Below are positions 33,504 through 63,900 of a stretch of 64,000 nucleotides of DNA, in pieces. This stretch comes from Yuukianura sp. NJ FZ-2021. Taxonomy: Eukaryota. A program made the translations under genes and the position numbers. The DNA is taken from the NCBI GenBank assembly GCA_046563655.1, contig JAJCTO010000010.1, positions 248,001-312,000 of the forward strand, read 5' to 3'. Every line of letters begins with the position of its first letter. Within the stretch, counting starts at the first letter, position 1. Below the pieces are notes generated by a model. It was given only the letters and a program-made list of their open reading frames with translations. It was not told the DNA's origin and did not search any database.

Positions 33504-33588
33504 ACCTTTTTAAACACTTGCTATTGGTCAAACGTTCAAATTCAAACTAAAATTTAAATCTTTATTAAATTGGCTTATATTAGGACTC

Positions 33589-36500: not shown

Positions 36501-37350
36501 TATTAACTTGTAAGAACTTGTCCATTTGCTCCAAATCCATGGGAAATTTGACGCAGGCAAAGTCTACGGAATTAGGAAAGTTGTCGTAGCTTCTAGGATC
36601 CGTAATTTGATACCAGTTCGCTGATACATCCTTGTGCAATGGGTATAATTCAGCTAAGATGGCATATTTAAAGCATTGTTGGTCCGAATTTCTAATATTA
36701 ACAACACATCCTTTTCTAGTCATGTGAGCAGGCGTAGGAATCCAGCCATCTCCACGCTGCATACGGTACACTGAAAATTTGAATGTAATCCATTTGAATC
36801 GACTAACACGCCATCCAGAGCCCTTCCTCAAGAATGCGGCTATTGTATCTCCAATTTTGTTTGACATAAGCCGAAGGGTATTTTGAATCATTCTGGGTTC
36901 TAAGGTGATGTGGGTAAATGAACGGAATGGAAAATCCTCAACTTGTTGTTCAGTGTTACTTCCATGAACTTGTCTTGTCATTTCAAGTGCAACACTGCTC
37001 ACCAAATACGACCCGATTTCTCCATGAATCCTTCTCATCAAATCCCGCAAAGTTGCTGAACAGTGAGCAAACACACCAACCACATCCACAAACACATCTT
37101 CATCAAACGTTGCGGTATACTCTCGAGTGGTACCGCCGAAAGCAGTCAATTCATCGAAATGTACTTCATTCTCTGGAGCACTTCCACCCTGTTGGTTTTG
37201 TACAGAAGGATACAGTTCTGGGTGAGTATTGTACTGGTGCTCATCCAACTGCCCAGGATACTCAAAATTTATTCCACACAGAGCACAAAATCGTCTCTTG
37301 TAATTCCTCAATTCCAACGCAACAGAATCTCGTTCTAAATTGAAAGACAA
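33589..37350 (-). pseudogene. Protein-primed DNA polymerase B 1, in five fragments
   Basis: N-terminal C2H2 finger; GSGW and VNIRNSDQQCFKYAIL; FCDFE (ExoI); Endo VII-like DHCHLTG; FHNFRNYDSH (ExoII); FIDSY; KGVYPYEYMDS; L*DANLLY (motif A); KAMSNIVFGK (motif B); MTDTDS (motif C); KKAKG. Confidence 0.95.
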
Positions 37351-41047: not shown

Positions 41048-43865
41048 TTTGAAAGTGTCAGTTGAAAGTGACAGTTGAAATTTGGCGCGCGTCACTTTTA
41101 TACACCGCGCTGCTCTGTAACATGGATTCAACGGTCGAAACTTGCGGTTCCATTTAATTTAAGCTAGTTTAATCTAATTTTTCCTCTTCTTCCATTTTTT
41201 CTTGTTTTGGTGTTACGGCCAACCGAAAGTCGCCAAATGAAAAACTGAATGTGTTGTCTACAAAATGTCGCTTGATGTCAAATGCACCGATTCCGCGACG
41301 ATTCAGGATGGTGGTAACCATTTGATCATTTTCAAATTTTACCAACGGCACTTGAATCTGTGCTTGCTTTTCAAAGTTCAAAATGTAGCTTCGAAAGGTT
41401 TCGTGCTTTACATTTTCCTTGGCCCAATCCCGTCCAATTCCTCCGCATTTCAAAATTTCCTTTTCGTTTGACTCTGGATAGTTTAAGATCGAATACTGAT
41501 TAGGACTCGTTGCGCATACTTCGCAGATTCCGTCCGTCACGATTTTCAAAACTCCCGCTCTTCCCCTGTTGGAGTCATCGTAGAGCTGATGATGCTTTGG
41601 TAAATTTGAAACGTCAAAAATGTGTTTTAGGCTCCTTAGTTTTCGTAAATATGTCCGGTCAGGGTCGACGACTTTAACTAGGAGAGAGTCAGTGTTGTTT
41701 AAAATATTTTTGACGTCGCCAAACGTTGGCAAAATGTAATTGTAGTAGTAGTAGAGCATAGTTTTTGCATTGCTCATAATCACAAGTGACAGAATACACA
41801 AATTCCTGGTAGGGACCTTGGTTTTCTTCATGTGAAATAGCATGACGTCATTGTTGTAAATTTCAAAACTTTGAAACTTGTCTGATGCAAGCAGCCTTTG
41901 GGCGATAGTTCTAGTTTCACAAAACTTCTTTTGTGAGTAGTGTGTTGGGTCCAGCATCTACCTCCCATTTAAAGTTACTGACATTAGTTTGGCCAGCTGT
42001 CGCTCCGTCTCTGTAGGAGCATTTTTCTTTTTTTCGAAAATTCTTCCCATGTAATTTTGAAACAATCGCCGCTCTTGAAACTTGATCCCCCTGTGGACAG
42101 CCGTTAGCCGAATTCCGATGCGGAGACAAAATGCCAGCATTTTATAATACAGAACGATGCGCTTTTTGGGAAGCAACGTCAGTAGAAGAATTCGTGGCGT
42201 AGGTTTTTTTTTTGTTTCTGAGCAAAATTCCTGCTGGGCAGTCGATAATATGTTGTATTCCACAATTTTCTTCTCGGGAGGTAGAGGAAATTGACCTAGC
42301 TTTTCGAGAAGCTCATTGGGCACCACTAAGTCAAATTCAAACAAAAATCCAACCTCCGTGTCTCATTTTTGATGGACATAGGCGAATTCTCGCAGCTCGT
42401 CACCAGTCATAAACTCATATCCCCCGCATGGTAGCATTCCTTGCGACCAATAGGCGTAGCATGACGTAATGTCTACCAAATAGGTGCTCTGACCTCTCTT
42501 CTCTGGGGTCAAAGTGCTGCTCCCCAAACCTGTCTGTGTTTGAAACTGAATGTCGAGTTGTGAGGTTAAAGAGACCAGCAATTAGCCCGCGATCCACAAT
42601 TTCTGTCATTTCCGGATTTGTAATTAGCTCAACTTGGGCTCTTTCTGTAAAAAAGCAGCTTTCGAGGACAAACGAGTTGCAACTCCAAGTCGTTGCAATG
42701 TCGAGTCCGTATTCTTTAAACCTGATTGAGCGCTGATTTTCAAAAGCTTCAGCTTCGAGGAGACATTCGACACTCGTTAAAAATTCCAAATAACTTGGAA
42801 ATGCTTCCGGTCATTCTGAGAACAATTAGAGATTCCACCGACTTTTCGTTGAGCATGCGCCAAAATTCCTTATCTTCCAATTCTGCATCTGCTTCTAATG
42901 CTTTTTCGTACTCACTCACTGATTTGAACTTTGGCACTTTGAGTTTAAAGTTCAAAATCCACTTTTTTTCAATCAGTGGAAAGTTTTCATCCAAAAAATT
43001 TGTTAAAATTTGAAACTGACACTTTGAAACTAGCAATTCGGTGACTAATCCCTCGATGCAAACGTCCGGTCGATAATTTTTCAACTGTGATATTCGTAGT
43101 GAGTTGCTATAAACGAGACCAATCGTGGTCCCGTCTTTGAGGGCAATTGGTTCAAGAAAATGGCGACTAGATTTGGTAGCCAAAAGCTTGAGTTCATTTT
43201 GAACTCCAAAGCACATGGACAGCAGATCGAGCTTGTATTTGATGTTCAGATTTTCCTTGGAATGAATCGACCCGAGGTAACTTCCGTCCATGTGGTTATG
43301 GTGACAAACCTTGACATTTTCCGGAGTAAATTGACCTTGAAACAAAAAACGTGAGAATAAATTGAGAACAAATTTTGTCAAACCCATGGGACAGTTATTA
43401 CCTCCGCACAAATCGCAAACTTGTACAGAAATGTGCCTGTGGATCTGAGCGGCAGTCATTTTCACTGGAACGTTTCTGTTGGCCAAGATGTGAATGGCTC
43501 GATTTGAAGCTTCTAAAGCAGTGTTTATTAGAACTTGCATGCAATCGAGTCCACGGTGAGCCTGACGAAAAACTATCCCTTCTTGACCTAGTAGAACCAT
43601 GACAACAGCGATAGGTATGGCGACAATTGAGCCACCATCTCTCGCCTCTTGTACATAGTCAAACTTGAAATAAAAAATGTATGGAATCTTCAAAAGCATG
43701 TGAAGCTTGTTAAACTCGAAAATGTTGGTTTTGGGTTCGTGCGTCATTGTTTCGCCACAGACGTGATGCTTAATCCGTTTTCTTTTTGTGCGGAAGCTCT
43801 TGAGACACTTGTGACAAAAGTCACTCTTGCTTGCATGGTGTTTCCCCAGAAATCGTGATAAGTCT

Positions 43866-45412
43866 TGTGAGACTGCAAAATAGCGTCATGTCGTTAAGAA
43901 AGGGAGAAGCGCGCGCCCTCTATTGGTACTGTAGGGACAACTCTTCCACTTTTCATCTTTTCACTTTCAAGTCAAAAGGCAAAAAGAAACACAAACTCAA
44001 CCACAACTAATTAATTCAATTTTAACCCCTGTTAGGGACTCCGTATCGTTTCAAAACCAGTACTAATCAACTCCTAAGAGAAAGTTGATTGTATGTATGT
44101 TTTTCAGGAGGGGACTACGCCGAGGCTTAGCCCGCACCGATGAGGCGCACTTAGACGGGCCTATTTCAGTAACTCCATTAGGGACATACTGTTAGAGTTC
44201 GGGCTGCCTTTAACCGGTTATCATTTCTTTCACTGGGTATTCAGCAGTCTGAGAGGGGAAGGATACACACAAACTCCTCCACCTCGAGCTTCTGGCTTTT
44301 CGTATTTAAATTATCTTATTTCTCATAAGACAGACGAATTGCCTCCGCTCATCAACATATTATAATCTTGCGAGGGACTGCTGCCTTGCATACTATTACT
44401 TGACGCGGCAGGACGACGGATCGAATCCATCTCCCTGCGTTGACTTTTTCATAGGCTTAGCATACAATCTCAGGTAGACAGTGGAAAAGGATGGGAGCCT
44501 TAACCACTGAGCTACTCGCCCGCCCTTAAAGAGAAAGTTGATTAGTACTGGGGTAATTAGTATCAGCTGCTATTTTCCTTCATTGTTTTAAATTGTAAAA
44601 GGAGTGCATGGATGAGGCTGCCTTTTACATGGAAAAGGGTAGCAGGGGCCCCTCTTCCATACACTCGGGACCGAGTCATGCTGTCGGATCAAGTAGACGT
44701 CACAGGTACGGTAGACGTGGTGAGATAACTCGCCTGCTACCACAGGTGGTTCGAATCTCTTTCGGTTTTCCGGAGATTCTTGGTAGGGTTCGGCGTTTCG
44801 TTTCATTCCGTTTTCGTTTACCGTTTCGTTTTCGTTTCATTTACCGTTTCAATTAGCTGGTTTTCAATTAGAGATTCACGTTTGGTTTCAATTAGAGTTT
44901 TTCTCATTTGGTTTTTCTCATTGGTTTCACATTAACTTAACGATTTGAGCGCGGTAAAGCGGCGCGGCGCGGTTTTCTCTTTTGGTTGTTTGGTTTGAAC
45001 TCACAACATCTCAGTCTCATGTCACGGGGTTGGTGACCCCTAAAATTGCTGTGTACCGCGGCATTTGAGTTATTGGTAGTTAGTACTGGTTGGTTCGTGT
45101 GGAGTTGGTTTGGTGCGGCACTGGGGTGCGGGAATCTGGATTTTCGGGCTGGAGTACTCGAGATCAAAAACGGGCTGGAGTAGCTGATCAACTGAGGCCA
45201 ATTTCTTTCTACTACTACCAGAGGTAAAAAGGGGGTCAAGTCGTGACCTTGAGTGACCGGTCGGCCCTTGGAAGGGAAGAAACCCCCTTCTAAGGTGAAA
45301 CTGCTAAGGGCCCGGGAAAAACGTAAGGATAGGAACGGAAAGGTTGGGTTCACAAATTACAGCGGAAGAGAAGTCCCTTAATTTAACCACTACGTAAATT
45401 CCTTATCTTACA
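43866..45412. mobile_element. Solo LTR (Gypsy-type, 4-bp TSD) inserted in PolB2; contains a SINE
   Basis: Termini TGTGAGA...TCTTACA with TSD GTCT at 43862-43865 and 45413-45416. Precise removal restores ITD-LSRFL in PolB2. Confidence 0.8.
44091..44528 (-). mobile_element. tRNA-derived SINE
   Basis: A box TAGCTCAGTGG, B-box-like GATTCGATCC, (ATAC)n tail, 15-bp TSD AAGAGAAAGTTGATT at 44076-44090 and 44529-44543. Confidence 0.85.
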
Positions 45413-46446
45413 GTCTGTGATGCACACAAAGTGTGACTTGCCTTCATTTTCAATTTGAAGCAAGTTGACATGATGTCTCTTCGTCTCTGTTGTTGCTCGT
45501 GACAGGCTGACCTCTGACCCTTCGACTCGGAAGAGGTTCAGGGAAATTTCCGGGTTATTTTGTTCAAAAGTGTCAAAATCCAAAACTGAAACTCCGCCTT
45601 CCTTGTCGATGCCTTCAAAATTTAGAGCTCCAAGGCACGGCACATATGAGCCTTCCTTGATTAACTTTTTTTGACGAAATTTCCCAGACCGCTTTGGTCC
45701 TTCAGCCCCACGAGACCTTCTTTTTAATGTTGACCAAGCCGTGTCTCCTCTGTAGAAATGGGGGGAGGGGTATGTATCCCTTTCCCCTCAAAGGCTTGTA
45801 CTCTCCAATGTGCACTTGAACCTCTTTGATGGCTTCAATTCTCCATTCTGAGCCACGCACGAGATACAAGTTGAGACTTTCAATAACATAGGCAGTGTTT
45901 TGTAAAATTGATCGCTGAATGTAGTTGGCATGAGTAACTGTAGTAAACGGGGAAGAAACTGGAGAATCGGGATGTCGAATGTCCGAATGACCGAATCTCA
46001 ATCATGTAACAAAGCAGCTTTAGTGCAAATCTGAGACCCTTGTAGCTTGACCCTTGAAGCGACGCACAACTACATTCGTGCGTCGCTTCATAGTGCACGT
46101 CTAGCCAGTAGTATGTACGACATTTGTACTCGCACTTGGAAGCTCCTTGTGAAAAACCACAACTAAATACCGAATGTCGCTTGTTGCCATTTTTCAGTTG
46201 AAAAGGGCCAAACTCAAGCGGCACTGATTGCGACTCGACCTTTTTAAAGATGTTGCTCTGACCAAGGCCAAACGACTACTGACATGCAAGGTGCACCTGG
46301 TCCAGCTATATAGGTCGAAACCGACTAAAAACAATTTTGAAGGCCGAAATTTATCTTCTTTTTTTTTTATTTTATTTTTAAATTTTGCCAGGAAATATAC
46401 TTCATAGTAAGCCGACTTATTCTAAGGGAAATTAATGTACAATGGG

Positions 46447-46854
46447 CTATGGTTGCGAAGAGGTTCGGAAGAGGTAGGCTTTCAGATTGTCGCACTTGAT
46501 TTTGGCTCCAATGTAAAAGGCCACACCGTAAATGACTGCGCCTGTGGAAACAAAACAAATTAAAAATTAAAAAATAAAAATTTGCGAAAATTGTTGGAGA
46601 AAATATTTTTAATTTACCCACGACTAAAGCAAGCGAGTGCATTCCTTGAGGGTTCTAGAAGCTGAAAGTAATACTTGCCCAGGCTGAAATCGATGTGCGT
46701 CTGATGCACAAAACTGTTGCTCAGCAAAAAGAGTCCAGGCTTGAACAAATGTAGATTGTGTATTTACACAACTTTCGCAGCGAACCTTGAGCGAAGGGGG
46801 TACTGCACATGCGCAAACCAGAAGGCTTGAGACAATAAGCTCCAAGAGTGCCAT
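46447..46854 (-). pseudogene. Second small membrane protein (signal peptide, CxxC, TM); intron 46542-46617; needs one frameshift
   Basis: Signal-like start MALLELIVSSLLVCACA, then CESCV. The spliced 3' part reads ALVVGAVIYGVAFYIGAKIK. Confidence 0.4.
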
Positions 46855-46913
46855 GGTGACGTGTGCTTGGTTCGACTGCTAAACTTGAACTGCAGACTAT
46901 TCCCGCCGTCACC

Positions 46914-47603
46914 TTACTTTTCTACGTCTACTGTGACCATGTGCTGGTTATGTGCCGCGATAACTGCAGTTGCAGTTTTGATCTTTGCATTCGTTTCTGG
47001 ATCTTCCAGCCCGACTTGCATTTCTTTCGGGAACGTAAAAATGAGGTTATAATTTTTGATGCAATAGATGAAATCTCCATGTTTTCCCACGAGCGCATGT
47101 GGTTCATATCTTGTCGGATACACGAGTGGCATCCTGTGTAGATTATTGTAGTCGGCGAGTTCCGTCGTGTCAAATATTCCTATGTCTCGATAGCTTGGGT
47201 AACCAAGGTGGCGTTTTAAAACTTCATACATCAACAACCCGGAAGCCAAAATTATGGCCTTTTCAACTCCAATTCCATATGGCGCCAACGCAGTAAACAA
47301 GATGCGCTTGTATTCGCTTTGGTAATATACCAAAATCGGAGTAGTTCCTCCGATCCACTGGGTCTCGAGATTGCACAAACCAATTGCCTGGTCCTTTTGA
47401 ATGTACCGCCTGGTGGATCTCTTGAATTTCTTTCTCATGACATATTCGACGATAATGGAGCTCATGGAGATATGAAGGCGCGAAAACTGGGATCTTCTAT
47501 TCTCTGGCCTTGGTTCATGCTGCCTGAAAGGACGAAAATGAACTCTTCCTCCAATGACTGAGCACGGCGTGTATTTTTTTGAAAATTCGAGTTCAAGCTT
47601 CAC
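46914..47603 (-). CDS. Hypothetical protein
   Basis: 229-aa open frame, co-oriented with the cluster. No motif recognised. Confidence 0.45.
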   Translation of the reverse strand: MKLELEFSKKYTPCSVIGGRVHFRPFRQHEPRPENRRSQFSRLHISMSSIIVEYVMRKKFKRSTRRYIQKDQAIGLCNLETQWIGGTTPILVYYQSEYKRILFTALAPYGIGVEKAIILASGLLMYEVLKRHLGYPSYRDIGIFDTTELADYNNLHRMPLVYPTRYEPHALVGKHGDFIYCIKNYNLIFTFPKEMQVGLEDPETNAKIKTATAVIAAHNQHMVTVDVEK

Positions 47604-48065
47604 ATCAGCTTCCGGATCTCCGACACAGCCGATACATGGGCAAATGTTCTTTTCCTTAGAGACCTGGATCCTTCAACTGATTTTGACATTCTGCAATCTT
47701 GACTTTTAATTGCTCAACTCCAGTTAGCGGCTCAATGTGAGTAGTTTGTATTGGTAGTGCTAATGGCGCCAACTCCACAGTATCCTCTACCAATACTTTT
47801 TGGCAGCCGCAGCCCTTACTTCCTTGCTGGGCTCCTCCCTGGAACAAACTGCTTCCGCAGCAGATTCCATTTTAAAACTAAAGAGAAAGTAGCAAGGGAA
47901 TTTGTATTTTATATCATCTCGGAAAAACTAAGTCTTAGTAGTATATCCTGTACAAACTCGTAACCACATTTTTTATAATTGAATCAATTAAAATTTGGAC
48001 CAAATTAATCAAATGTCGTTTTGACAAAAGGTTAGAGCTAATTGCAACTGCATTGTCGCCAAAAA

Positions 48066-49528
48066 CTAATTAATGCTGTTCACTGCCACCGTCCAATTTG
48101 GAGATCGAATGACTTCCTTGTAGTAATTTTCTTCCTCTGCCTGCCACGCTCTCAAGTGGGAAAACCGAGACCCGTTGACCACATCTACTCGAAAGGGTGT
48201 CGAAAAGACCAAATCCTTTAAGCTCTTCACTCTTGAGCATGCAGTGTAAATTAGCATCGGCGAGAGTCGAAAGAATAGACTGTCACGAGACGGAGCTCTC
48301 GGGATGGAGACGACAACCAGTATGGAAATGCCAAAGCATCATCACATTAAAGTTTTCAAGACGATAGGCTTACTTTGTTTCGAGTGAGGCCTTGACTTTT
48401 GTGAACCGAGACGGCAAACGCCAATTGTAGGGGCAGTTGAGTTCTTGTAAAAGTAATCTTTTCCACCGGATCGGTCACTGGATATTGGATAGGGACAATT
48501 GGAATTTCGTTTAATTTTCCAGAATAATGAAAATGAGGTCCATAATAGCTTGATCATGACAAACAATGGAAATCCACTTGCGTCCCTCTCGTTTGAAATT
48601 TGTGTCACCGTAGCTATTGCTCCATTGTATAATCCAGCCTAAAACATAATTTTGTAAATCGTTGCACGACCCCACACTTGTTTGAAGTTCTCACCTCGAC
48701 CCAGAGGTTCCGTGTAATTGTGACCTTGGCCCCCACCGCTAGCCTGAGCACATGCTCTTTGGAGGATTTAGGATTTTTCGACTTGATGTCTACAATTTCG
48801 GTTCCGAGCTTTTCCAGTCTAAACGCATTGTAGTGGTCTACAAACTTTCTTCCCGCAAACAAAATTGTAGCATCTGCAAAATCTTCTAGCTCTTCTTCGC
48901 TCAATTGTGATGCACATCGACCAGAAAGCAACTGGACATCTTCATTATTGATTTGTCCGACACGCATTCGTAGCAACAATTGGCGAAAAGTCTGCTCTTC
49001 GGGGTCACGCTGGCGCATATTCTGTTGTAAGAAAAAGAGGCGCGAAAAGGATGCATAAGCCGCGGCACCAGCCACTTCAAAACGATTATTTGGATCCGAC
49101 TTTGGATAAATTGGTTTTTCTGCAACCGGTGGCAGCTAAATCAAAAATTATAAAAACTAAAATTTCGACTGTTACAGAACTGAGAAGGAAAAATTACTTG
49201 GGCGCAGTCTCCAAACATTACGATGCTTTTTCCTCCAAAGGGTTCCGTATTTTGGAAAATTGCAGAAAGCCTCAAGCTGACAAATCCCAATAGCTGAAGA
49301 CCTATGAGACTCGATTCGTCGAAAATTAGCCAATCGTTTTTATGCAATTGGCGCCCAACACTTTGCCCAAATTTTCCAGGCTGAGATTTTAAAAAGTTGA
49401 GGCATAAAAATAAGCCCTTGTGGAACGTTTTTCCTCCTAAGTAGACGCAAAGACAAACTTCAATCACAAAATTAGGATAAAATTGAATTCAACTTACCAA
49501 TCAAATGTGCAGAACTCCCCGTAAAACT
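48066..49528 (-). pseudogene. PIF1-family (SF1B) DNA helicase, 5'-truncated, four introns
   Basis: Spliced product: SFTGSSAHLIG|GKTFH, IFDESSL, PFGGKSIVMFGDCAQ|LPPV, QNMRQ, RNLWVE|AGLYNG, QLPLQLAFAVSVHKSQG, NK|VVV, YTACSRV. Introns are 49437-49497, 49136-49197, 48639-48694 and 48318-48373 (last acceptor reads TG). Confidence 0.9.
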
Positions 49529-50200
49529 AATTCCAGTTTTGATGAAGCTTGGGATCTGGTTGTAAAAAGGTACAGTAATCTGAGAGAAATTGTTTTTGCT
49601 CACATGCGGACGTTTTTCGATTTGCATCCAGTCCAAGATTCAGCCACAGGATTACGTCAACTGTGTGATGTAATTAACGAATGCGTTCGTTCATTGAAAA
49701 ATCTCAAAGTTCCAGTGGAACATTGGGATCTAGTTTTCATCTTCGCCGCTTTCCAAAAAATGGATCCAATGTCCAGGAAGGAGTGGCTTCTCGTGCAAGG
49801 AAGTGATCTTCCTAAACTCCCCAAGTTCCTGGAATTTTTTGAAACAAGAGCCACCGCCCTTGCCGACTCTCATTCCAAAAAACCGTGTCAGAAGCCAAAA
49901 TCCGAGTCAAAATCTGCGAATGTTTCAACTGGAGTTAAACCCACCTCTCCATCCAGCTCAAATGCTGAACCAACTGCTTCCGGCTCTTCAACAAAATGCG
50001 ATCTCTGTGGCGAGTCACATTTTCTTTTTCAGTGCTCCGCATTTAAAAAGTTAAATGTCAAAGACCGACTTGACTTTGTACGCCAGTCTCGTCGGTGTTT
50101 CAACTGCTTCCGGAAGTCGTGTTCTTCAAAGTGTGACAGAGAGAAGTGTAAAAAATGCTCTAAGCCCCACCACACACTTTTACACTTCGAGCAGAAACAA

Positions 50201-51183
50201 GGTAGGGCAATGCTCAAGGGTTGAGCATAGGTCTTCTGGAGGTGGTTGATAATTGATGCGACTTTAAACCGGTTTGCCTTAAAACTGTAGAATAAATGAG
50301 AGAGCGTTTTCATGGAATTGATGCACCAAAACGTCGCTCAATATTTTCAGTGTGCATGTGAAGTGCTACTTTGTGCATGAGCTGCGCCAAATTTGGGTTG
50401 GCAATTCTACCATTAAATTGCACCAAAATCATGTTCCAGTTTTGAGCCCCAAAATAGTGCACTGAATTGATGTTCTTAATTTGTTGAGCAAGATGCACAT
50501 AATGTATGGTCGGTGTTGCCATGGCAATGTACTATTAGCGAAACGAGCGTAAACCAAACGGCATCAAAATAGTGATATCGAAATTGAGATTTGTGCATGA
50601 TGAACAAATTTGAACGCTGAGCAGGATGGGTTGAATATGCCTTCTTTTAAATCGAAATCGGTTCATAAAGATGCACAGTGTGTTAAATTAAGTGCATAAG
50701 TTATTCAGCCGAAAATCGCTTGTTTATAATCAGAATTAAAATACTTTCTTGTGAATGCAAACTTGAATCCTCCCATTCGCTGCTTAATTGTTACGAATTT
50801 AAGCCGGAATTTCTACCCTCTAACTAGGCTTAATTTAACAACGTAATTAAACTAACTGTCAGAAAATGACCAGATCAAAACTTCGTTGTTAAAAAATATT
50901 TTCAGTGCAATGCAAAGGTATCAAAAAATTTAAGTCAGAAGAGTCGGCAATGGGAAGTAGCCGCTAATTTTCATGTTGTTAATATAACACTTTTAGTGGA
51001 ATGTAGACCTATTAAAAATACTTTAGCCATACATAACCCCCCGAACGGGATAGGCCTTATGTTTCAGTGGAAAGATTCCTAAAAAATGTGACACACAGAC
51101 AAAGTCGTATCAATAGTCTTCTTCAGCATGTCGTAGACATGCGTCTCCAGAAGACTAAAAACAAAATGCCACCTCCACTCACC
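50201..51183. mobile_element. About 980-bp non-coding DNA-transposon-like insertion in Bel/Pao gag
   Basis: Removing 50201-51185 restores the frame FEQKQ-SSSEPTSG. Termini GGT...ACC with a subterminal inverted GTCTTCTGGAG; 2-3 bp duplication (AA or CAA). Confidence 0.65.
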
Positions 51184-54100
51184 AATCATCAAGTGAACCC
51201 ACCAGTGGATCTCAAGTGGACTCAAACTTGCAGTCTCCAAGTGTAATCCAGACCAGTTCTGGACATTGTTCTCCAGAGAACAATTCAGCACATGTGGTGC
51301 TAATGGAGACTGTGTTAGTGGATGTCCTGGATTCGCATGGTGACAAGCAACAATGTCGTGTCTTTTTGGACAGTGGATCCGAATCTCACTTCGTTTCAGA
51401 GCAGTGCGTAGATCGTCTTGGATTGCCCCGTGAGAAAACGTGCGTCAACATTTGCGGAATCGGTGGTGCGACTGCGGAAACTTCCAGAGGATTAGTCACC
51501 CTCAAAATTTTTTCACACCTCAACAATTACTCTGTGGAGTTCAAGGCTCTTGTATTGAAGAAAGTTACAGGATCCAAGTTGCCCCGTTCAACCATCACAT
51601 CATCACTTAACTACTTGGGTGAAATCGAATTGGCCGATTCTACATTTGCATCTCCAGGACCAGTGGACATCCTAATCGGTGCTCCATTAATTGTTGAGTT
51701 CAGCCGCCCTGGACTTATTCGTGGCCCCAAAGGTTTCCCATCTGCTCGAAATACAGTTTTCGGGTGGGTACTTTCTGGAGTTGCCCCATGTGAGTCAAGT
51801 GCCTCCAATTGTGTTCAAGTGCTCTATTCCCGTTGCTCTAAGGATGAACCTTGTGTTGATTCAACGCTGAAAAAGTTTTGGGAACTTGAGGAGCCTTGTT
51901 CCGTACCTCAACCCACTACTAAAGAGGATGAACAGTGTGAAAAGTGGTTTCAATCATCTGTTAAAAAGTTGGATTCTGGTGAATACTCTGTAGGACTTCC
52001 GTTCGTTTCTGACTTTTCTGGACTTGGCTCATCCCCTACTGCTGCATTACGTCGTTTGACTAGTGTGGAAAAATCACTGGCGAAAAATCCAGAAATGAAA
52101 AGAAGTTATCATCAGCAGTTCAGTGAGTACATTACAAAAGGTTGGTTAGTGACAGTCTCTCCTTCTAATTTACAGAACCCGTGTTCGTACTACATGCCTC
52201 ATCATGTCGTAACCAAGGAAGACAGCACGACTACAAAGTACAGAATCGTTTTTGATGCCAGTGCCAAGTCTTCGAACTTTCCCTGAACAATGTTCTGAAA
52301 ACTGGCCCAAAACTCCAAGTTGATCTGGTTCCACTTTTACTCCATTTTCGTACACACATTGTTGCCATGTCAGCTGATATTACCAAATTTTATAACTGTT
52401 TCTCTGTTCACAGTGAATTCAGTGATTATCAGCGACTACTCTACCGTCCTACTCCAAATGACCCAGTGATGGACATGAAAATGACAAGAGTGACGTTCGG
52501 TGTAGCCCCCGCTCCCTTTTTGGCCATTCGTTGTCTCCACCAGTTGGCAGATGACAACTTTGAAAAATATCCGGCCGCATGTCAAGTCATCAAAAAAGAA
52601 TTTCTTGTGGACAATTTATTGTCAGGAGCCCCGTCAGTGGACGAAGCCATCCAACTACAACAAGAACTGCTCAGTGTCATGCAAATTGGGAAGCTCGAAC
52701 TGCGAAAATGGACTTCGAACAGTCCAATCGTCGTTTCATCTGTCACTTCCGAAAATCAGGCGAAAAGTCACACCCTCGAAATTACAGAAGACGGAACCGT
52801 GAAAACAATCGGATTACTGTGGAATCCGTCTCTTGACACTTTCAGTGTAAAATTGAGTCCTAGTCTCCTATACAGTTCATCATCGAAGTTTCCAGGGCTA
52901 ATTCCTGTCACTACCACAAAGAGAAAAGTTCACTCCAGCATCGCCAGGATTTTTGATCCATTGGGCTGGCTGTCACCACTCATCATTCGCCCCAAAATTC
53001 TAATGCAGAAATTGTGGAAACCGAACTTGGACTGGGACTCTCCTCTTCCCGACTATCTTTTGGACGAATGGTATAACTATACGATAGACGTCATTCGCCT
53101 AAAATCATTTTGCGTACCCCGTTGTGTCATCCATTCCGACCTTACTTCAACCCAATTTGAACTCCACGGTTTTTGTGATGCCAGTGTCTCGGCATATTCT
53201 GCCTGTTTACTTGAAAGCGTTTTCAAGTGCCAACACCCCGATTGTCAATTTGCTATGTGCAAAAACTAGTGTTGCTCCAGTAAAAGGCGAAACAATTCCC
53301 CGACTTGAACTGTGTGGAGCAGTACTTTTGTCAAAATTAATGACTACAGTCATTTCGTCATTGCCACTCCACATTTCGTCTATCAACTGTTGGTGTGATT
53401 CCACATGTGTACTAAATTGGATCAATTCAGACAAGAAGTTGGAAGTTTTTGTGCATAACCGTGTGCGTAAAATTTCATCGCTCCTTCCTTCTGCCAATTG
53501 GAATCACGTTGATGGTGACGACAATCCAGCGGATTGTGCATCACGTGGTATTTCTGTGTTTCAGTTTTTGCAGCATAAGCTTTGGCTACATGGTCCAAAT
53601 TGGCTACAAGAGTCTCCACAAATGCCGACCAGTGCTACAACCACACAAATAGTTACTCCCTCCAACTGGTTTTTCGAAACGGTGGGAGTATTCATCCAAA
53701 AATGTGATTCGTTTCATAAGATGAAACGATATTTAGCAGTATGGATCCGCTATGTTGCCAATTTATATCCAAAAAGTGAAAGTGTGATTGGACCATTGAC
53801 TGTGAAAGAATTGGATCAAGCCCTCATCGTTCTTGTCCGTTATGTCCAATTGGAAACGTTCTCAAGTGAATTGGATTGGTGTAAAAGGAAAAATACGTCT
53901 CCAAGTACTGTAAAATCCCTCACGCCGTTTATCGACGCAAACGGTATTTTACGGGTGGGAGGGAGACTGCGTCATAGTTTCTGGTCCTATGACCAAAAAC
54001 ATCCAATCTTACTTCCTCGTCACCACCATTTCACAAATTGTGTCGTTGGACATGTGCACCATGCCAACAATCATCCAGGACCACAACTGCTGCTCTCACT

Positions 54101-55069
54101 CGTCCGTGACCAATTTTGGATTTCAAATGGACCGAAACTCTGTTCATCCATTGTACGAAAGTGCATTCAGTGCCACAAAGCAAATCCAAAAGTGTTAGGA
54201 CAGAAAATGGGCCAATTACCAACTACTCGTGTGAACCCCACTCTTCCATTTGCTTACGTCGGAGTTGACTATGCTGGTGCGTTCCATGTCAACGCAACTC
54301 CTGGACGTAACCCGAAACTTCTAAAAGCAGATGTGGCAGTGTTCGTCTGTTTAGCAGTGAAAGCGATTCACTTAGAGTTTGTTAGTGACCTCTCCACTCC
54401 AGCATTCTTAAGTGCCTTTGATCGTTTCGTGTCCACCCGAGGCTGCCCCTCAAAAATTTTGTGTGATGGTGGGAGAAACTTTCTTGGCGCCAAAAATGAA
54501 GTGGAAGCATTTCAACATTTTGTTCAGTCCACCCCCCATGTCAACCAAGTGTCTAAGTTTTTCGAGGATCAAAATGTTGAATTCGTCATAAACCCACCCT
54601 ACGCTCCACATTTTGGCGGGATTTTCGAAGCTGGAGTGAAATCCATGAAAACACATCTTCATCGTGTTGCTGGTGACAGGCGACTTTCAATTGAAGAGTT
54701 CTGGACCCTCCTCAAAAGAATCGAGGCAACCCTCAACTCTCGACCTTTGACCCCAATGTCATCCGACGCAAACGACTTCTCTGTTCTGACTCCCGGGCAC
54801 TTCCTCATTGGACGATCCTTGAAGGCTGCACCACAGGAGAACCTGGATGGATTCAAAGTTCATCAACTGACACGCTGGCAGTATGTGCAGCAGATGGCAC
54901 AGCACTTTTCTCGTCGTTGGAGTTCCCAGTACCTCCAGTCCCTCCAGAAAACACCGAAGTGGTTTGCAGAGCAGGAGAACCTTGGAGTCGGAACCCTCGT
55001 TCTGCTCAACGACAGTGACTCGGACCTTGGACCACAAAAATGGACGCTGGGACGGATCACTGCGGTGTA

Positions 55070-55637
55070 GGGGCGAGTTGGCTCAGTGGTTAAGCCTTCA
55101 ATGCTTTTCCACTGGCCGGCCTGAGTTCGCACCCAGTCAGCGGGAGAGAAAAAAAGAAGTCGAGGCCGTGGGTCCTCCCTGTCCCGAAGCAGGGAGGCAA
55201 GTGCTGGACTTCTGTCTTTCCAGCGGCTGTTGTGTGGACACCCCTATATAAAGGAGTATATTGGGGGGTGCCGCATCTGCAAGCACTGCCTGCTGAGACC
55301 ACAGAAGGAGCTGACCTTGAGTCAGAGGTGTCTGTGGTCTGCTGTGACAGCGGGTAAGAGCTTCGCGGATTTGTGGTGGTTGCCGATCACTATTCCTTGA
55401 AGCAGTCCATTAAGCTAAAAAATAACCATTCAATCTGATTTGCTTATCGGGATACGGACGACCTCCGTAGGATGATAGCATTCAGATTACCATAATGTGT
55501 ATTTGCTCATAAAGGACAAAAAATAACGCTGTTTCTAAAGGGGTAGGTCTGAAATATACCATAAGCGTATGCTCAGCGTGAGTCAGTCACCTAATTATAG
55601 GTGACTGCTCCCCCCAATAAACATATATATAACATAT
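55070..55637 (+). mobile_element. tRNA-derived SINE inserted in the Bel/Pao integrase
   Basis: Head GGGCGAGTTGGCTCAGTGGTTAAG, B-box-like GAGTTCGCACC, AATAAA plus CATATAT tail, 14-bp TSD ATCACTGCGGTGTA at 55056-55069 and 55638-55651. Confidence 0.88.
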
Positions 55638-55892
55638 ATCACTGCGGTGTACCCTGGAAAGGACAACCTCGTCAGAGTCTGCGACGTTCATGTTCCAGTA
55701 ACGGATGCCAAGGGAAACGTCACAGTCAAGACGTACAACCGTCCCATTGCCAAGGTTTCCCCTCTCCCCATCGACGATGGAACATATACGTATGCGTATA
55801 AATCTTAAAAATAAGATTTAATATCAAATACTAATTATTTGATTGTGTGAGTGTTTGAGTTCCCTTTTGTTCTTAGGTTTAGTTATAAATAT

Positions 55893-56360
55893 TTTTTTTT
55901 TTTTTTTTTTTGGAGAGTTAATTGACATTAGCATATGCTCTATCAACAAGGGTTAGGGAATTTCTGGGTTGGGTTGAGGTCCTATGGGGTGGGGCGGTGG
56001 TACAGTCAGATAGTTGGCGAGAAGTTCTGAGGGAAGGACGAAAGGCTTTCTGCTAGAGCTGAACGGGCTAGGGCCCTACCACATATCACAGCTCCAGGCA
56101 AGTGACAGGAACAGCATCGTACGCATACCGGCCCACGACCCCCCTCCACAACAGCAACTACTGACCTCTTCACACGCACCCATAACCCCCCAAACTGACC
56201 TATCATCCGAACACCCCATCTGGGCTAGGAAAGTGGAAAAACCATTTCTGGAAAACGACTTTCGTGTCGGCGACGCCGGGACTCGAACCCGCGCCCGTCC
56301 AAGGTGTTAGTAGGATAGAGCCGGAGCTCTAGTCCCCCCGGCCTACGGGCCTTGGACTGC
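55893..56360 (-). mobile_element. tRNA-derived SINE with poly(A) tail
   Basis: B box GGTTCGAGTCCC on the minus strand, ~20-nt T-run at 55892-55911, 15-bp TSD TTTAGTTATAAATAT at 55878-55892 and 56361-56375. Confidence 0.85.
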
Positions 56361-56663
56361 TTTAGTTATAAATATAAATTTTAGTAATAAACTTCTTTCC
56401 ATTAGAATTTTGTTCTAAAACTTCCTGTTTTTCCAAAATTTAGTTCAAATTTTAGCTGTAGTTTTCCTTTCTCTTAGAATTCAATTCTAAAATTCATCTC
56501 TTTTCTAAAATTTAAGTCTAAATTCTAGTTAAAAATATGTCGCCTCAAGTAGGTTCCAGAGTCCCCTTAGCTTCCCACTCAAGAAGATTTCAGTGCTCTT
56601 AAATACCCATTTAGGTAAGTAGGATTTAGTTTGTAATGATGTACTGCGTACATCAGGTGGGAG

Positions 56664-57048
56664 TGTTTGTAGCTGTGGTTGATTTGCAGCCTGTCATTGG
56701 TCGACTTTGTGAGTCAACCAGAGGCAGGTTGTGTGTGCATAAAAAAGAGTGAGACGCCAAGGTCAAAGTGAGCTTTGACATTGGCGTGGACATGTCCAGG
56801 CTTCTCCTGGACATTGATGCGGAGTCTTCTGCTTCAGAGAGTCTGTCCAGCCACCGAGCCACCAACATCTCTCTCTCCTTCCTGTCTGTCTGTGTGTGTC
56901 ATCACAATTATTGTTAGTTAAGAAATCTTTAACCTTGAGCAAATAAAAGTGCTCATAAAATTGGATTTGCTGTGTCACACATCGTTTTCTCAAATTCAAA
57001 CAATTGACAGTTCAAGGTTAGGTCCCTGAAGTGACCAAGTCACAAACA
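56664..57048 (+). repeat. 3' LTR of the Bel/Pao element (385 bp)
   Basis: TGTTTGT...ACAAACA termini directly after the polypurine tract; internal AATAAA at ~56942. Confidence 0.8.
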
Positions 57049-57246
57049 AAGCCTTTTTCACTTTTAATAAAAACACAGATTTTCTTTTCTCAACTTACAA
57101 AAATATGAACCCTTTGCTCTCAAATTATTGCAAAATAAAAACCTTCAAAAATCGGTCCTGTACTTTTGCTGGAAGCCAATTTATTTCACCAATTATTTTG
57201 GCACTTGCTAATTAGAGTACATTTTTTCTTTTTGTCGCACGACTTA

Positions 57247-57708
57247 CTAGGACTTAACAAACTGTTCAACAATTGCATCATTTTTCTTAAGATCGAAACG
57301 ATAGAATTCTTTCAAAATCTCCGGAACGGGTCTTCCTCGCAGCATGTTTGAGATTACATACAAACAAAATTGGCCACAGTTACTGCTATTGTCCGACTGA
57401 ACTTTTGTGCAATTGTACTTGTATCTTCCAAACCGACGTAGAATAGAAATTCCGTATGCACTAGGCTGTTGACCAAGAGGGTCAAAGAAAATTAGCCCCC
57501 CCCTTTTGCGCATGACAAGACATGTCCAGTGAAGCCCTCCCGACCCTTCAAGGTCATCCGTGTTAACAATAACTACAAACGGAATCGATAAATGTAGAGT
57601 TGCAAGTTGATTCCTGGCGACGACGGCCGTCATTGCCTTTCGGTTTGTACAATTCAAAATTCCTTCCAAGTGGGATTCCAGTTCTTCGGTACTCATTCCC
57701 CATGCCAT
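57247..57708 (-). CDS. Adenain-like cysteine protease 2 (ORF intact)
   Basis: IVNTDD...GLHWTC, FFDPLG, VQSDNSSNCGQFCLY, NDAIV. Confidence 0.92.
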   Translation of the reverse strand: MAWGMSTEELESHLEGILNCTNRKAMTAVVARNQLATLHLSIPFVVIVNTDDLEGSGGLHWTCLVMRKRGGLIFFDPLGQQPSAYGISILRRFGRYKYNCTKVQSDNSSNCGQFCLYVISNMLRGRPVPEILKEFYRFDLKKNDAIVEQFVKS

Positions 57709-57710
57709 GT

Positions 57711-59094
57711 CTACTCGAATCGTACCCCTCCACGACCGTCCAGAGAAAGCAAGTTTGTCACTGTCCCAAGTATTAGCAGCTGAATCGTTTTTGTCGTTGT
57801 TGCCGAAAATTGCAATGTCACCTGGAATTACAAAACGGAAAATGAAACATGGAGATTTAGGGTGTATGGGAATTTGGGCGAACTATTTTTGAGGCTTACG
57901 TATAACTCTCCGGTCCTTTGAGGAACAAATGTAGACGAAGGCACAGATTCGGAAAGTTGAAACAAAAATAACGAGTTTCCTTTGGCAAACGTCTCTCGGC
58001 CGATTGCGTTTCCTCCGGTACTATTGACTGGGAGTGCGCCAAAAATCGACTCAAACGCTCTCATGTACTCCTTTAGGTTAAAGTTGAATTCGAGCGAGTC
58101 GTATCGAAACGTGGTTTCATCAAATGTAACCACAATCGACGTTACACCGCAATCGTTAAAATTGAGTGCAGACTTGTTTAGCGCTCCAACGTAATTTGCA
58201 TTGTCCATTAGAGCGACAACGACCGTGTTGGGGACTCGGTTGGTAAAACCGACGAGAGTCGAGAGGGTGCTGACTCCAGAAGGAATTACATACGGCCGAA
58301 TCTCCAGATCTTTGAGAGGATAAACTGCCTTGAGTCCCTTTTGAAATGCCTGCTGATGACGCCGCTCAATCTCCTCGTTTATTCGGTAAATCTTTACGTA
58401 CAACGAGACTTCCACCAACTGAGCCTTAAATGGGATCCCGACTTGCCCAGTCTCTGTCGTCACACTCGAGTCCAGATAAATTGCTGGAGAATTTTTGGTC
58501 AAAATGACATCAAAATTCATAGCCAGGGGGGATGAAGCGATCGACTTCAAATATTCCGCTCGCGAGTCTTCCAGGGCAATCAAATGTTTTTGATTCCTAT
58601 GCCAAATCTTTCCGAGTTTTAAAGCTAGAATTGTTGGCGTCCGTAAAATCATCTGGTGCGTTATCCGGGTAAAACAGTTGCGCGGTCATTCGCGAATTTT
58701 TGTCCCCCTCCGATCTGCCGAGAATTTCGGGGATCGTGCTGCGGTAAACATACTTGCCGCAGCTATCCGAAATTGTTGTAGAATGCAAATTAACCTTGAC
58801 ATTGTTCCAGAGGAGGTGGAAAAACAAATTCGCAGGAGCGACATTGTCGTCTGTCGCAATCTTTGTGCCATCAGCATTAACAATCCGCGCACGAACATAC
58901 AAGTAGCTGTGACCCAGATGGTAGTACAGCTTTGATTTCGGGATTGTAAAGGTGATTTGCGCGTCATCGCTCAGAGGAGTGGTAGGTTTGAAGTGAAGAA
59001 ACTGTGACTCTAAAATTCACACGTCAGTAGGTGGGACTTCAAAAATGTTCAGCGAATTTTGATAACTTTTTCGGCTTTTGCTTAGAAATTCCAT
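57711..59094 (-). pseudogene. Major capsid protein 2 with a 78-nt intron (57822-57899); stops and frameshift
   Basis: LNIFEVPPTD...FKPTTPL...LYVRARI...VAPANLFFHLLWNNV; YPLKDLEIRPY; VPNTVVVALM; FAKGNSLFLFQL. Spliced end TGELY|VTLQFS...LLSLDGRGGVRFE*. Confidence 0.88.
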
Positions 59095-60940: not shown

Positions 60941-63900
60941 TCAAGGTGTCGGTTTTGCATTTTTAGTGACGGAGTCGTTGATTTTTCTGACTTTGATGTC
61001 TAAATCCACTTCAAGTGGTATGCAAGCGTCGTAATACTCTTGAAAATCAAAGAGATTATCGTGTTTGTCTTTAAATGTGACAACTAACGCTTTGTCTTTA
61101 AAACCAGCTAAAGTGCGATAATTTATTCGCGTTCGATTTCTGAGATTTCTTTGATCGACTGGTTCGTTTTGTAAGTCGTTTGAATTTACACTCGGACTTT
61201 TATTTGAAGTATTTGGCTCTTCTAGAGCATTAGAACTGGTCTGTTGTCTTGCGACATAAGGTTTAATTTGAGAAACATGTCTCTTTCCAATACTTTTCTT
61301 GTCCGCTCTTTGTAAAATGTCAAATGTCACATTAGAAAGTCGTTCGCCCAATTCATAAGGGCCTTGCCATCTCGGGGCTAATTTTTCCATAAAACCAGCT
61401 TCTTTGTCAGATTGAACATGGGATTTGATTAAGACTAGATCTCCCTTTTTGAAATTGTCTTGTATTCGACTTTTGTCGTACTGGATTTTATTTTTCTCAT
61501 GAGCTTTTTGAATATTTTCTCGGACGAATTGAATTAATTCTTGTACCAATCTTGGTGTCTCTTTAAGTTCTTCAGAACTAAGTTCTGGCTCCTCCAGAGC
61601 TAAATTTCTGTCGAATGGTAATTGGATTTCTCTGCCAAGATTTAATAAGGCTGGGGACACTTTTGTAGTCTCGTTCATCACAGTTCTGAGCGCTAAGGCA
61701 AACTTTTGAATATTTTCTTCCCATTTATGGTGACTCGATTCCAAATACGCTTGAAGCATTGCTTTGATATTTCGGTTTGTTCGCTCGGAATTATTAGCCT
61801 GAGCATGATACGGACTGATGAATTTGTGTTGAATATTCCATTCAGAGCACAAGTTTTTGAGAATGTTTGAATCGAAGTACGTGGCATTATCTGAGAGAAT
61901 CCTCTTCGGAGTGCCATACCGGCAAAATATTTGATTTTCTAAAATGTCCGCAACTTTTTTCGCTGTGATTTCTGTCACAGGAAATAATTCAATCCATTTG
62001 GAAAGTTCGTCTAGAACGACAAGTAAATGTTTACTTTGTTTTCCTCCAGCACTCGTCGGCAGGGGTCCAATGAAGTCAAAATGAATTGTAGAGAAAACTG
62101 CCTTTGCTGGCTCTGCTAATTGCAGTAACCCGAATGGTTTATGATTGTTTGCTTTGGATCTTTGACAGCGATCACATGATTTGACGTAACTTGCGATTTC
62201 TTTGTTCATATTGTTCCAGTAACATCTTTGTTTGATTCTTTCAAGGGTTTTGGTTCTACCCAAGTGTCCCGCTTCTGGGGCATCATGAAAAATTTGTAGG
62301 ATCCTTTGAGTCATTTGCTTTGGAATAACTGGAACATAATAATCTTCTAGATTTTTTGCTTGTTGCTTTGTAGTGTTTTGACCTTCTAAGTCTAAATTTT
62401 CAGCTGAAGGGTCTGTTTGTACTGCGGTTTTGAAATGATTGCAATCTGGTCGTAGACAGAGGGGAATATGACAAGCAGAGTCTCGAGTCTCTGTTGTATT
62501 GGTAAGTTCTGGATCCATGCCTGGATTCGTAGTCATGCCCTTGAAGGGTTTAATTTTGATGAATAGGGTGTTTCTATCCATTTTGTAACTCTCCAAGCAC
62601 CTTGGCCGAGGTACTGAAGAATTCTGAAGGTGGTCAATAATCTTGGAAAGATTTTCATCCTTCCGTTGCTCCTGGGCGATTTCATCTATTGTCGGAGTAC
62701 AATAGACTAAGAGAAAACTCGGTAAATAGAGTGTTTCTCGGTCTTGGAACATATCGGGGTCGTCTGGACCTTCTGGGACACTAGCACGTGATAACGCGTC
62801 CGCCACCACGTTTTCGCATCCTTTGCGAAATCTGAGTTTCGCGTTCCACGATAAAATTTCCATTGCCCACTGCGTGAGTTTTGCTTTCTTGTTCTTCATA
62901 CCTTTAAGGTATCGGACCGCTCGATTATCGGTTTCTATGATGAAGGGGTGATCTTCTATGAATTCGCGGAATTTGTCGTATGCGAAAATAATAGCATAAA
63001 GCTCTTTTTCATAGATGTGTGCGCTTCTTTCCGACTGTTTCAAAGTCTTACTCACGAACATGATTGGTCTTTCTTTCCCTTCGTGTTCTTGAACAAGGGC
63101 TGCGCCTAAGCCAGTAGTTGAGGCGTCACATTGCATAATCAGGGGTTTTGAGTAGTCAAGAGTTGTTAAAGTGACTGTATCGGAAATCGCGTCCTTAAGT
63201 TGTAGGAAGGACTCTTGTTGAGGGACATCCCACTTCCATTTCTTTCCTTTTCTGAGAAGTGTGTATAAATTTTCTGCTTTGATACTGTAGTTTTTGATGA
63301 AGCTGGAATACCAGCCACACATCCCAAGGAATCGGTAGAGTTCTTTCTTGTTAGATGGAGGTGGGTAGTTGGAAATTGCGTCTTGTTTGCTGGGTTGTTT
63401 CTGAATTCCGTTTTGAGAAGCAATATGTCCTAGATATGGAACTTCATTTTTTGCAAAAATTGATTTTTCTCTTCCAATTGTAAGATTTGCTTCGCGTAGT
63501 CTCTCTAAGACGAGTTCGAGGTGTTTCATATGTTCCTCTAGATTTTTGGAGTAGATTAGGATATCGTCCATGAAAACTTTGACAAATTTGTCTACGTAAC
63601 CATGTAGTACATTTCTCATGACTGCTTGAAAAGTTTTTGGGCTGTTTTTGAGTCCCATGGGCATCACCAAAAATTCGTAATGTCCATCTTGTGTAATAAA
63701 TGCTGTCTTTTCGATACTGTCTTCGTGCATCGGAATTTGCCAGAAGCCTCCGTTGAGATCAAGAACTGTGAAGACGTAATTCATTGGTATGGTTCTGAGA
63801 ATAGAGTTGACGTTGTCCATTGGACCTGCGTTTGTCTTCATGGTATCATTTAGACGAATGTAATTGACACAAAGGCGGTAGGAGCCTGATTTTTTCTTCA

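Follow-up and report, generated by a model that had tools for sequence, protein, structure and literature searches.

Results

Gene content of the locus

The DNA analyzed here, referred to as the window, is a stretch of 64,000 nucleotides (nt) from Yuukianura sp. NJ FZ-2021 (GenBank assembly GCA_046563655.1, contig JAJCTO010000010.1, positions 248,001 to 312,000 of the forward strand), and it contains two sets of genes from Polinton/Maverick DNA elements, the second of which is interrupted by six short segments resembling spliceosomal introns. In this second set, every gene is located on the minus strand: remnants of a family B DNA polymerase gene (PolB2, 41223-46001) that are collinear with positions 166-1206 of the polymerase profile, an unassigned open reading frame (ORF, 46917-47672), a PIF1-like helicase gene (48066-49524), an adenain-like protease gene (PRO2, 57247-57708; Peptidase_C5, expectation value (E) 1.5e-5) and a major capsid protein (MCP) gene (MCP2 or capsid 2, 57711-59094) covering capsid profile positions 1-431. 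The polymerase belongs to the protein-primed family B type, as indicated by a DNA_pol_B_2 match at 41961-42362, and the double jelly-roll architecture of the MCP is assigned by sequence homology. This set resembles Polintons/Mavericks (polintoviruses, adintoviruses) in its protein-primed PolB with an Endo VII/HNH insert and in its double jelly-roll MCP gene, behind which the gene of an adenain-like protease is placed.

The first Polinton/Maverick copy comprises capsid 1 (23875-25084, minus strand, placed by capsid profile alignment), protease 1, an rve integrase (31358-32272), an ORF resembling a packaging ATPase (32844-33509) and PolB1 (33643-37005, minus strand). Capsid 1 is decayed, with one TGA, frameshifts and the absence of about 22 profile positions, and the damage in PolB1 consists of frame changes only, without short gaps relative to its homologs. 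Self-comparison detected no DNA-level similarity between the two sets, whose proteins are only distantly related, and two distinct Polinton lineages adjoin each other in the window. The rve integrase and an FtsK-type packaging ATPase were found in the first copy only, with none assignable to the fragmentary intron-bearing copy.

Six intron-like segments

The six segments, one each in MCP2 and PolB2 and four in the PIF1-like gene, were confirmed on the minus strand at the coordinates and lengths (56-78 nt) given in a preliminary description of this DNA, including the TG acceptor in one PIF1 segment, and each of them sits exactly at the break and resumption of homology. Capsid 1 and PolB1, which had been described as being without an intron at these positions, were indeed continuous in profile alignments. 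The accompanying claim that core viral genes are interrupted stands for MCP and probably for PolB, but does not extend to PIF1, which is an accessory gene rather than a core Polinton gene.

GTRAK is found at the start of all six segments, AG at the end of five (the sixth ending in TG) and YAG at the end of four. For an arbitrary segment of the same strand between 40000 and 60000, the chance of combining a GT start with an AG end is 0.0034, and that of combining a GTRAK start with a YAG end is 6.5e-5. The G+C fraction of the segments is 0.24-0.38 versus 0.37-0.49 in the 150-nt flanks, with the exception of PIF1 intron 3 (0.38 versus 0.37 in its downstream flank), and the pyrimidine fraction across the final 20 nt ranges from 0.55 to 0.80. 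The segments are mutually unrelated, in that none of their 15 pairwise local scores leaves the range obtained with 100 shuffles. Group I or II introns need more length than 56-78 nt, and a self-splicing intron was rejected as a candidate, no Rfam family having reached its gathering score in 22000-64000. Because the carrier genes are dead, a lone TAA (as in MCP2) or an open frame (as in PolB2) proves nothing by itself, and the test must therefore be comparative.

The capsid gene and its homologs

Exon 1 of MCP2 (57900-59094, minus strand) covers positions 1-397 of the double jelly-roll capsid profile and carries three lesions, namely TGA at 59017-59019, TAG at 58597-58599 and a frameshift near 58516-58520. 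It is separated from exon 2 (57711-57821, minus strand; 36 codons, VTLQF...VRFE, plus a TAG stop; profile positions 397-431) by a candidate intron of 78 nt (57822-57899, minus strand; GTAAGC...TTCCAG) in phase 0 between profile positions 397 and 398, which keeps the frame and contains one TAA. The resulting junction GELY/VTLQF aligns with GNVKIELKF of capsid 1, and this earlier proposed pairing is correct according to the profile alignment. PRO2 is an intact ORF of 153 codons that starts 2 nt past the MCP2 stop; it retains its H and C motifs although the adjoining capsid gene is broken three times.

A word-based protein search with MCP2 gave no match. A HMMER search with its read-through translation (X at the stop) recovered 1011 proteins at E <= 1e-3, of which the best 150 were analyzed; a capsid profile was built from 69 matches of 420-460 residues, and the best 150 together with both window copies were aligned to it. 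One match, P0011, was rejected as spurious: this protein of 2759 residues, with 100-residue tandem repeats that appear fibronectin-III-like by eye, reached E 3e-26 through 24 short matches, and does not cover the MCP2 intron site.

Among the 143 aligned sequences that span the site, 127 are continuous (capsid 1 included), two carry an insert and 14 end at or near it. The inserts are those of MCP2 itself (26 residues) and of its top match P0007 (27 residues, frame open), the latter beginning with V and ending with Q, as a read-through of GT...CAG would. Ten of the 14 site-ending homologs end straight after a conserved G-x-x-K/R/Q, from where short unrelated tails begin with V or AS, and P0017 is ambiguous at the site. 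The tails of P0012 and P0014 begin K/AS after the shared site, which, judging by the protein letters, would fit a GCAAGT donor, i.e. a GC-AG intron. The homologs are ORF calls on short metagenome contigs, which is why they end at the putative intron, and for the same reason the continuous members of the clade described below, such as P0009, are truly without it.

An MCP tree of 146 sequences was derived from the region upstream of the intron site, in which capsid 1 sits far from capsid 2. The interrupted leaves constitute 11 of the 21 leaves of one clade (support 0.93) versus none of the 125 outside it, a clustering with a Fisher p of 3e-11 for which a clade this small was obtained in 0 of 2000 random draws.

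The capsid site in the DNA of relatives

A metagenome was scanned with a single protein, P0018, as query, which returned four loci: L001, being the contig of P0018 itself, L002, encoding a protein with 79% identity, L003, encoding a 31% relative, and L004, a fragment. No relatives emerged from IMG/VR when it was scanned with MCP2, PIF1 exon C or a four-sequence MCP alignment.

In L001 the capsid sequence ...GKVK is followed by 93 nt (GTATGA...TTGTAG) and then by IELTFQ...VSIK and a stop, and in L002 an intron of 416 nt (1425-1840; GTATGC...GCACAG) occupies the same codon and phase. Both introns are identical in profile position and phase to that of MCP2, so that the comparison of intron positions across relatives, which the preliminary description had put forward as a check, agrees with its reading at this site. 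Stops occur in the segments of both L001 and L002, one of which is about four times as long as the other, and no alignment between them is possible. The greater length in L002 is explained by an internal tandem duplication of 176 nt.

Between L001 and L002, the 36 codons of exon 2 show 12 synonymous and 6 non-synonymous codon changes (6/5/16 by codon position), and exon 1 shows 155 synonymous and 84 non-synonymous codon changes (70/50/207), from which the downstream exon is judged to be under purifying selection. Since this small exon is kept as protein past a stop-filled spacer, splicing would be required in L001 and L002. A conserved intron position, a variable length and selected flanking exons were found together for the MCP only.

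L003 has no intron at the shared capsid site. An intron of about 82 nt (~1375-1456; GTAACA...TTATAG) lies elsewhere in its MCP gene, about 25 codons upstream of that site. The protease gene is likewise interrupted by a GT-AG intron, at PG/EHW, in L001 (1893-1986, 94 nt) and L002 (~2115-2398, ~285 nt); this intron is absent from L003 and from both proteases of the window, PRO2 being continuous at the corresponding G/xHW site.

The polymerase segment

The candidate intron of PolB2 (43336-43401, minus strand) consists of 66 nt (GTAATA...TTTCAAG) in phase 1 and sits within the Endo VII/HNH insert, between CxxCG and HxH. It is in frame without a stop, and the ORF 42752-43885 continues through it. 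The remainder of the gene carries in-frame stops at 42363-42365 and 41958-41960, a frameshift near 42487-42500 and about 1.5 kb of foreign DNA (43871-45409), across which profile positions 326 and 323 abut. A 44-nt piece of this foreign DNA (44479-44521) recurs, inverted and with 86% matches, at 55071-55114, and may thus belong to a further family of short repeats.

A word-based search for PolB relatives returned six distant homologs, which have 36-40% identity to PolB1 versus approximately 24% to PolB2. The CxxC...HxH nuclease insert is present in all six and in PolB1. After the second cysteine, the spacing is 10-12 residues in P0001, P0005 and PolB1, versus 34 in PolB2; PolB1 is continuous here, with CIHCG, 12 residues and DHCH. 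A profile of the six homologs delimits exactly 22 PolB2 insert residues, between CDLCG and GQF, that are absent from PolB1, and their removal leaves CG, 12 residues and HxH, with a CG-GQF spacing equal to the CG-VQF spacing of PolB1. This segment is the weakest case, because it is open in frame and ends in AAG, and from the alignment it is likely an intron.

The helicase-like gene

The PIF1-like gene, all parts of which are located on the minus strand, is predicted to contain four introns. About nine codons survive of an upstream exon (49498-49524), the N-terminus having been lost where a BEL/Pao fragment cuts the gene off near 49525. Intron 1 (49437-49497; 61 nt, GTAAGT...CTTAG), which joins ...AHLIG/GKTFH and rests on these nine codons, is followed by exon B (49198-49436), ending ...MFGDCAQ at PF05970 position 151. 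Intron 2 (49136-49197; 62 nt, GTAATT...TTTAG) splits GDCAQ/LPPV, and exon C (48695-49135; LPPV...NLWVE) continues with PF05970 positions 157-221 and then enters Pif1_2B_dom. Intron 3 (48639-48694; 56 nt, GTGAGA...TTTTAG) splits NLWVE/AGLYNG within the 2B domain, exon D (48374-48638; frameshift near 48545) ends ...SVHKSQGLTRNK, and intron 4 (48318-48373; 56 nt, GTAAGC...ATACTG) with its TG acceptor precedes exon E (48066-48317; VVVSI...YTACSRVKSL... and a stop).

Exon B matches PF05970 with E 3.2e-5 and 24.0 bits, just below the curated 25.9 (27.4 bits for the whole ORF), and its similarity to a Bacteroides Pif1 chain extends as far as residue 146, where ...FGDCAQ stands opposite ...FGDLFQL. 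For exon C, the matches to the next part of PF05970 and to the first part of Pif1_2B_dom are weak (E 0.065-0.23) and fall short of the curated cut-offs, and a feature search favors its assignment to the PIF1 family; the junction of exons C and D falls within the 2B domain. Searches against PDB gave E values from 2e-5 to 1e-4 for exon D with yeast and human PIF1 chains, chance-level matches only for exon C and no match for exon E. The alignments leave the predicted positions of introns 2 and 3 well fixed, and intron 4 is the least certain of the four. According to the excerpted text of PMC2374985, some introns of human genes use TG as a functional 3' splice site.

Other features of the window

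A 184-bp satellite occupies 24-22314 (123 copies, 92% matches, ~36% G+C) and directly borders a transposon-rich region; beyond 22.3 kb, the window is a graveyard of mobile elements, and it contains no host gene. A 5'-truncated BEL/Pao retrotransposon without long terminal repeats (LTRs) extends over 49487-55067 on the plus strand and begins within gag (DUF1759 from profile position 52). Because it starts in gag and no LTR pair is present in the window, its junction with the PIF1-like gene probably arose by rearrangement and not by a clean insertion. A Ty3/gypsy pol region follows at 60944-64000. An insert of about 460 nt resembling a short interspersed nuclear element (55878-56382, minus strand) shows a poly(A) tail and a tRNA-like GGTTCGAGTCC box, and a direct repeat of 15-22 nt (TTTAGTTATAAATAT...) lies on either side of it. 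A tRNA gene was rejected there, as neither ARAGORN nor Rfam made a call. Apart from the 44-nt match described above, self-comparison of 22001-64000 revealed no inverted repeats, and neither terminal repeats nor a 6-bp target duplication were found for the intron-bearing copy.

Discussion

Probable introns of a Polinton lineage

The six segments probably represent U2-type spliceosomal introns, preserved here as fossils and inherited from a Polinton/Maverick lineage whose expression relies on nuclear splicing. In this lineage, transcripts of the capsid and polymerase genes, and of an accessory gene for a PIF1-type helicase, would be made in the host nucleus and freed of their introns by the host spliceosome. 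Such elements replicate as DNA by means of a protein-primed polymerase that they encode, without an RNA intermediate, so that introns are handed to every new copy. As the copies present in the window are dead, nothing is spliced for function here. That the segments are spliced at all is inferred from sequence, and we also infer a common history of the MCP2 intron and the segments in PolB2 and PIF1. Judged by the sequence comparison, the MCP intron is a lineage trait, newly recognised here. The view advanced in the preliminary description, of a virus lineage carrying spliceosomal introns, thus gains support from the confinement of interrupted capsid sequences to one clade and from the GT-AG segments in the DNA of two metagenome loci.

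Several observations weigh against this interpretation. MCP2, PolB2 and PIF1, the carrier genes in the window, are all pseudogenes with stops, frameshifts and transposon insertions. The PolB2 segment is free of stops and ends in AAG, none of the six PolB homologs found shares it, and one of them, P0002, tolerates a long coding insertion in a nearby region of the polymerase. A word-based protein search with PIF1 exon C returned 0 matches, and thus no relatives with PIF1 introns; PIF1 intron 4 ends in TG, and its first four read-through codons, VSLS, align with VEIS of human PIF1. Seven members of the 21-leaf capsid clade are continuous at the site, and parsimony requires 7 changes, so that the order of intron gains and losses within the clade is not resolvable. 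Among the truncated relatives, the DNA-level check covers P0018, the others being interpreted from the ends of ORF calls, and L001-L003 all derive from one metagenome.

Alternative explanations

The PIF1-like gene could be foreign to the Polinton, being a fragment of a Helitron helicase or a host PIF1 paralog, in which case its introns would be uninformative with respect to viral genes. This is unlikely, yet deserves consideration: the N-terminus, the expected place of a Helitron Rep domain, is missing, exon B matches the Helitron transposase Helraiser with E 0.025 versus 0.11 for yeast PIF1, and no element ends were found. No Rep (HUH)-like sequence was seen in 55000-57300, the part directly upstream of the helicase having been cut off by BEL/Pao near 49525. 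Exon D, on the other hand, matches cellular PIF1 chains with E 2e-5 versus 1.2 for Helraiser. The gene shares its strand with PolB2, which it precedes with a single ORF in between, and Polinton-2 of Hydra, according to the excerpted text of PMC5499653, has a PIF1-clade helicase gene immediately upstream of its polymerase gene, a likeness to the arrangement in the window. Membership of the gene in the Polinton element is suggested by this position together with the one published precedent.

Two further explanations are both improbable. In one, introns were gained after capture by the host, when domesticated Polinton genes lived as host genes before they died. Introns are a hallmark of resident nuclear genes, and surveys call the core genes of intact Mavericks intronless (PMC8097293; bioRxiv 2022.07.12.499685; PMC10120064, as far as excerpted). 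Against this stand the compact viral order of basic protein, MCP and protease, which is kept in the window (where the protease begins 2 nt downstream) and in L001-L003; the presence within a single sample of two intron-bearing copies that have diverged from each other, each under purifying selection; and the variation of intron positions among relatives, as expected of a diversifying element family. The "host-gene-like stage" that had been offered as an option is disfavored by the viral gene order around the intron, and is not needed.

In the other, the segments would be lineage-specific coding insertions, i.e. extra loops, in PolB2 at least and perhaps in MCP2 and P0007, with the TAA of MCP2 as a later mutation. 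The PolB2 segment is open in frame with an ORF that reads through it, the 27 residues of P0007 are open as well, and in P0002 this part of PolB has likewise received inserted coding sequence. However, the capsid segments of L001 and L002 contain stops and, with their fourfold difference in length, are not alignable, nine or ten capsid ORF calls end 1-23 codons from the site, the inserts start with V and finish with Q in keeping with GT...CAG, and the PolB2 segment itself is AT-rich with a pyrimidine-rich end.

It is very improbable that chance insertions or small duplications in dead pseudogenes merely mimic introns: the genes are heavily decayed and PIF1 segment 4 lacks the AG, but the narrow size range, the GTRAK start in six of six, the low G+C content and the exact fit to homology gaps speak against it, as does the interruption of the MCP site in independent relatives with selected exons. 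Introner-type or transposon-derived introns, like the self-splicing ones set aside above, have next to no probability, for although introners are reported in Maverick-Polinton-like proviruses of dinoflagellates (PMC11957031, excerpted text), the similarity among the six segments does not exceed that of shuffled controls, on which ground an introner family was rejected, and no repeats or target duplications were seen.

Comparison with known systems

Inherited spliceosomal introns in a Polinton would invite comparison with other systems in which viral or mobile genes are spliced. Adenoviruses are nuclear double-stranded DNA viruses with the same module of capsid, protease and protein-primed polymerase, and are expressed through host splicing. 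Their splicing mainly joins leaders to the intact coding bodies of long transcripts, whereas the small introns of the window interrupt the coding sequence itself. The dinoflagellate proviruses resemble the present case in having introns of spliceosomal type in integrated Polinton-like elements; according to the part of PMC11957031 available, those are copies of introner families, mostly acquired after integration, unlike the introns of the window, which are mutually unrelated and in the case of MCP recur at one fixed codon in a clade whose members have diverged. Intron-containing Penelope-like retroelements, as portrayed in excerpted literature, also retain spliceosomal introns in a gene of their own, but being retroelements they need a special explanation for this retention, whereas a Polinton copied as DNA retains introns automatically.

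The short GT-AG introns in core genes set the second gene set of the window apart from the Polintons/Mavericks surveyed so far. In its excerpted text, PMC8097293 describes the genes of intact vertebrate Mavericks as intronless, "in agreement with" Kapitonov & Jurka 2006, and treats short "introns" in spliced alignments as decay; bioRxiv 2022.07.12.499685, likewise in excerpt, reports for nematode Mavericks core genes that are intronless and cargo genes with introns. The available portion of PMC10120064 states that endogenous viruses "do not contain introns", and hence uses prokaryotic gene callers. Spliceosomal introns in Polinton genes find no mention in the excerpts of PMC4028283, PMC5499653, PMC8502044, PMC3671162, PMC11296320, PMC5718144 and bioRxiv 2024.03.25.586562, nor in that of PMC12220804, which refers to group I introns only. 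No report of a conserved intron in the capsid gene was found in this literature; Kapitonov & Jurka 2006, Pritham et al. 2007 and Repbase were outside its scope and may hold mentions for single elements, and the priority of the finding of introns in Polintons is not settled.

Significance

Surveys of Polintons and polinton-like viruses use prokaryote-style ORF finders that assume the absence of introns, as described in the excerpted text of PMC10120064, and if the present interpretation is true, intron-bearing copies would be scored as degraded or missed in such ORF-based surveys. In a public protein collection, the sequences of at least ten capsid entries seem to break off at one intron. The interest of the finding, which lies in a clade-wide selected capsid intron, in a blind spot of ORF surveys and in an argument for a nuclear lifestyle, is considered moderate.

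A more far-reaching proposition, which we put forward tentatively, as somewhat less probable than its negation, is that a whole Polinton clade has kept an intron at a fixed capsid codon, and others in its protease, polymerase and helicase genes, across more than 50-65% protein divergence. In that case, intron-bearing genomes would have been replicated, and perhaps packaged, as such, and expression would be nuclear and dependent on the spliceosome, in the manner of a miniature adenovirus and unlike that of virophages and polinton-like viruses, which use the cytoplasmic factories of giant viruses. The intron could then also serve as a regulatory device for late capsid expression.

If selected introns are indeed present in capsid, protease and polymerase genes, they would mean nuclear expression by way of host splicing, a dependence that would constrain the lifestyle and the host range of the lineage. 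A DNA-copying element that moves introns between loci, and possibly between hosts, would moreover provide a system in which the gain, loss and transfer of introns can be followed.

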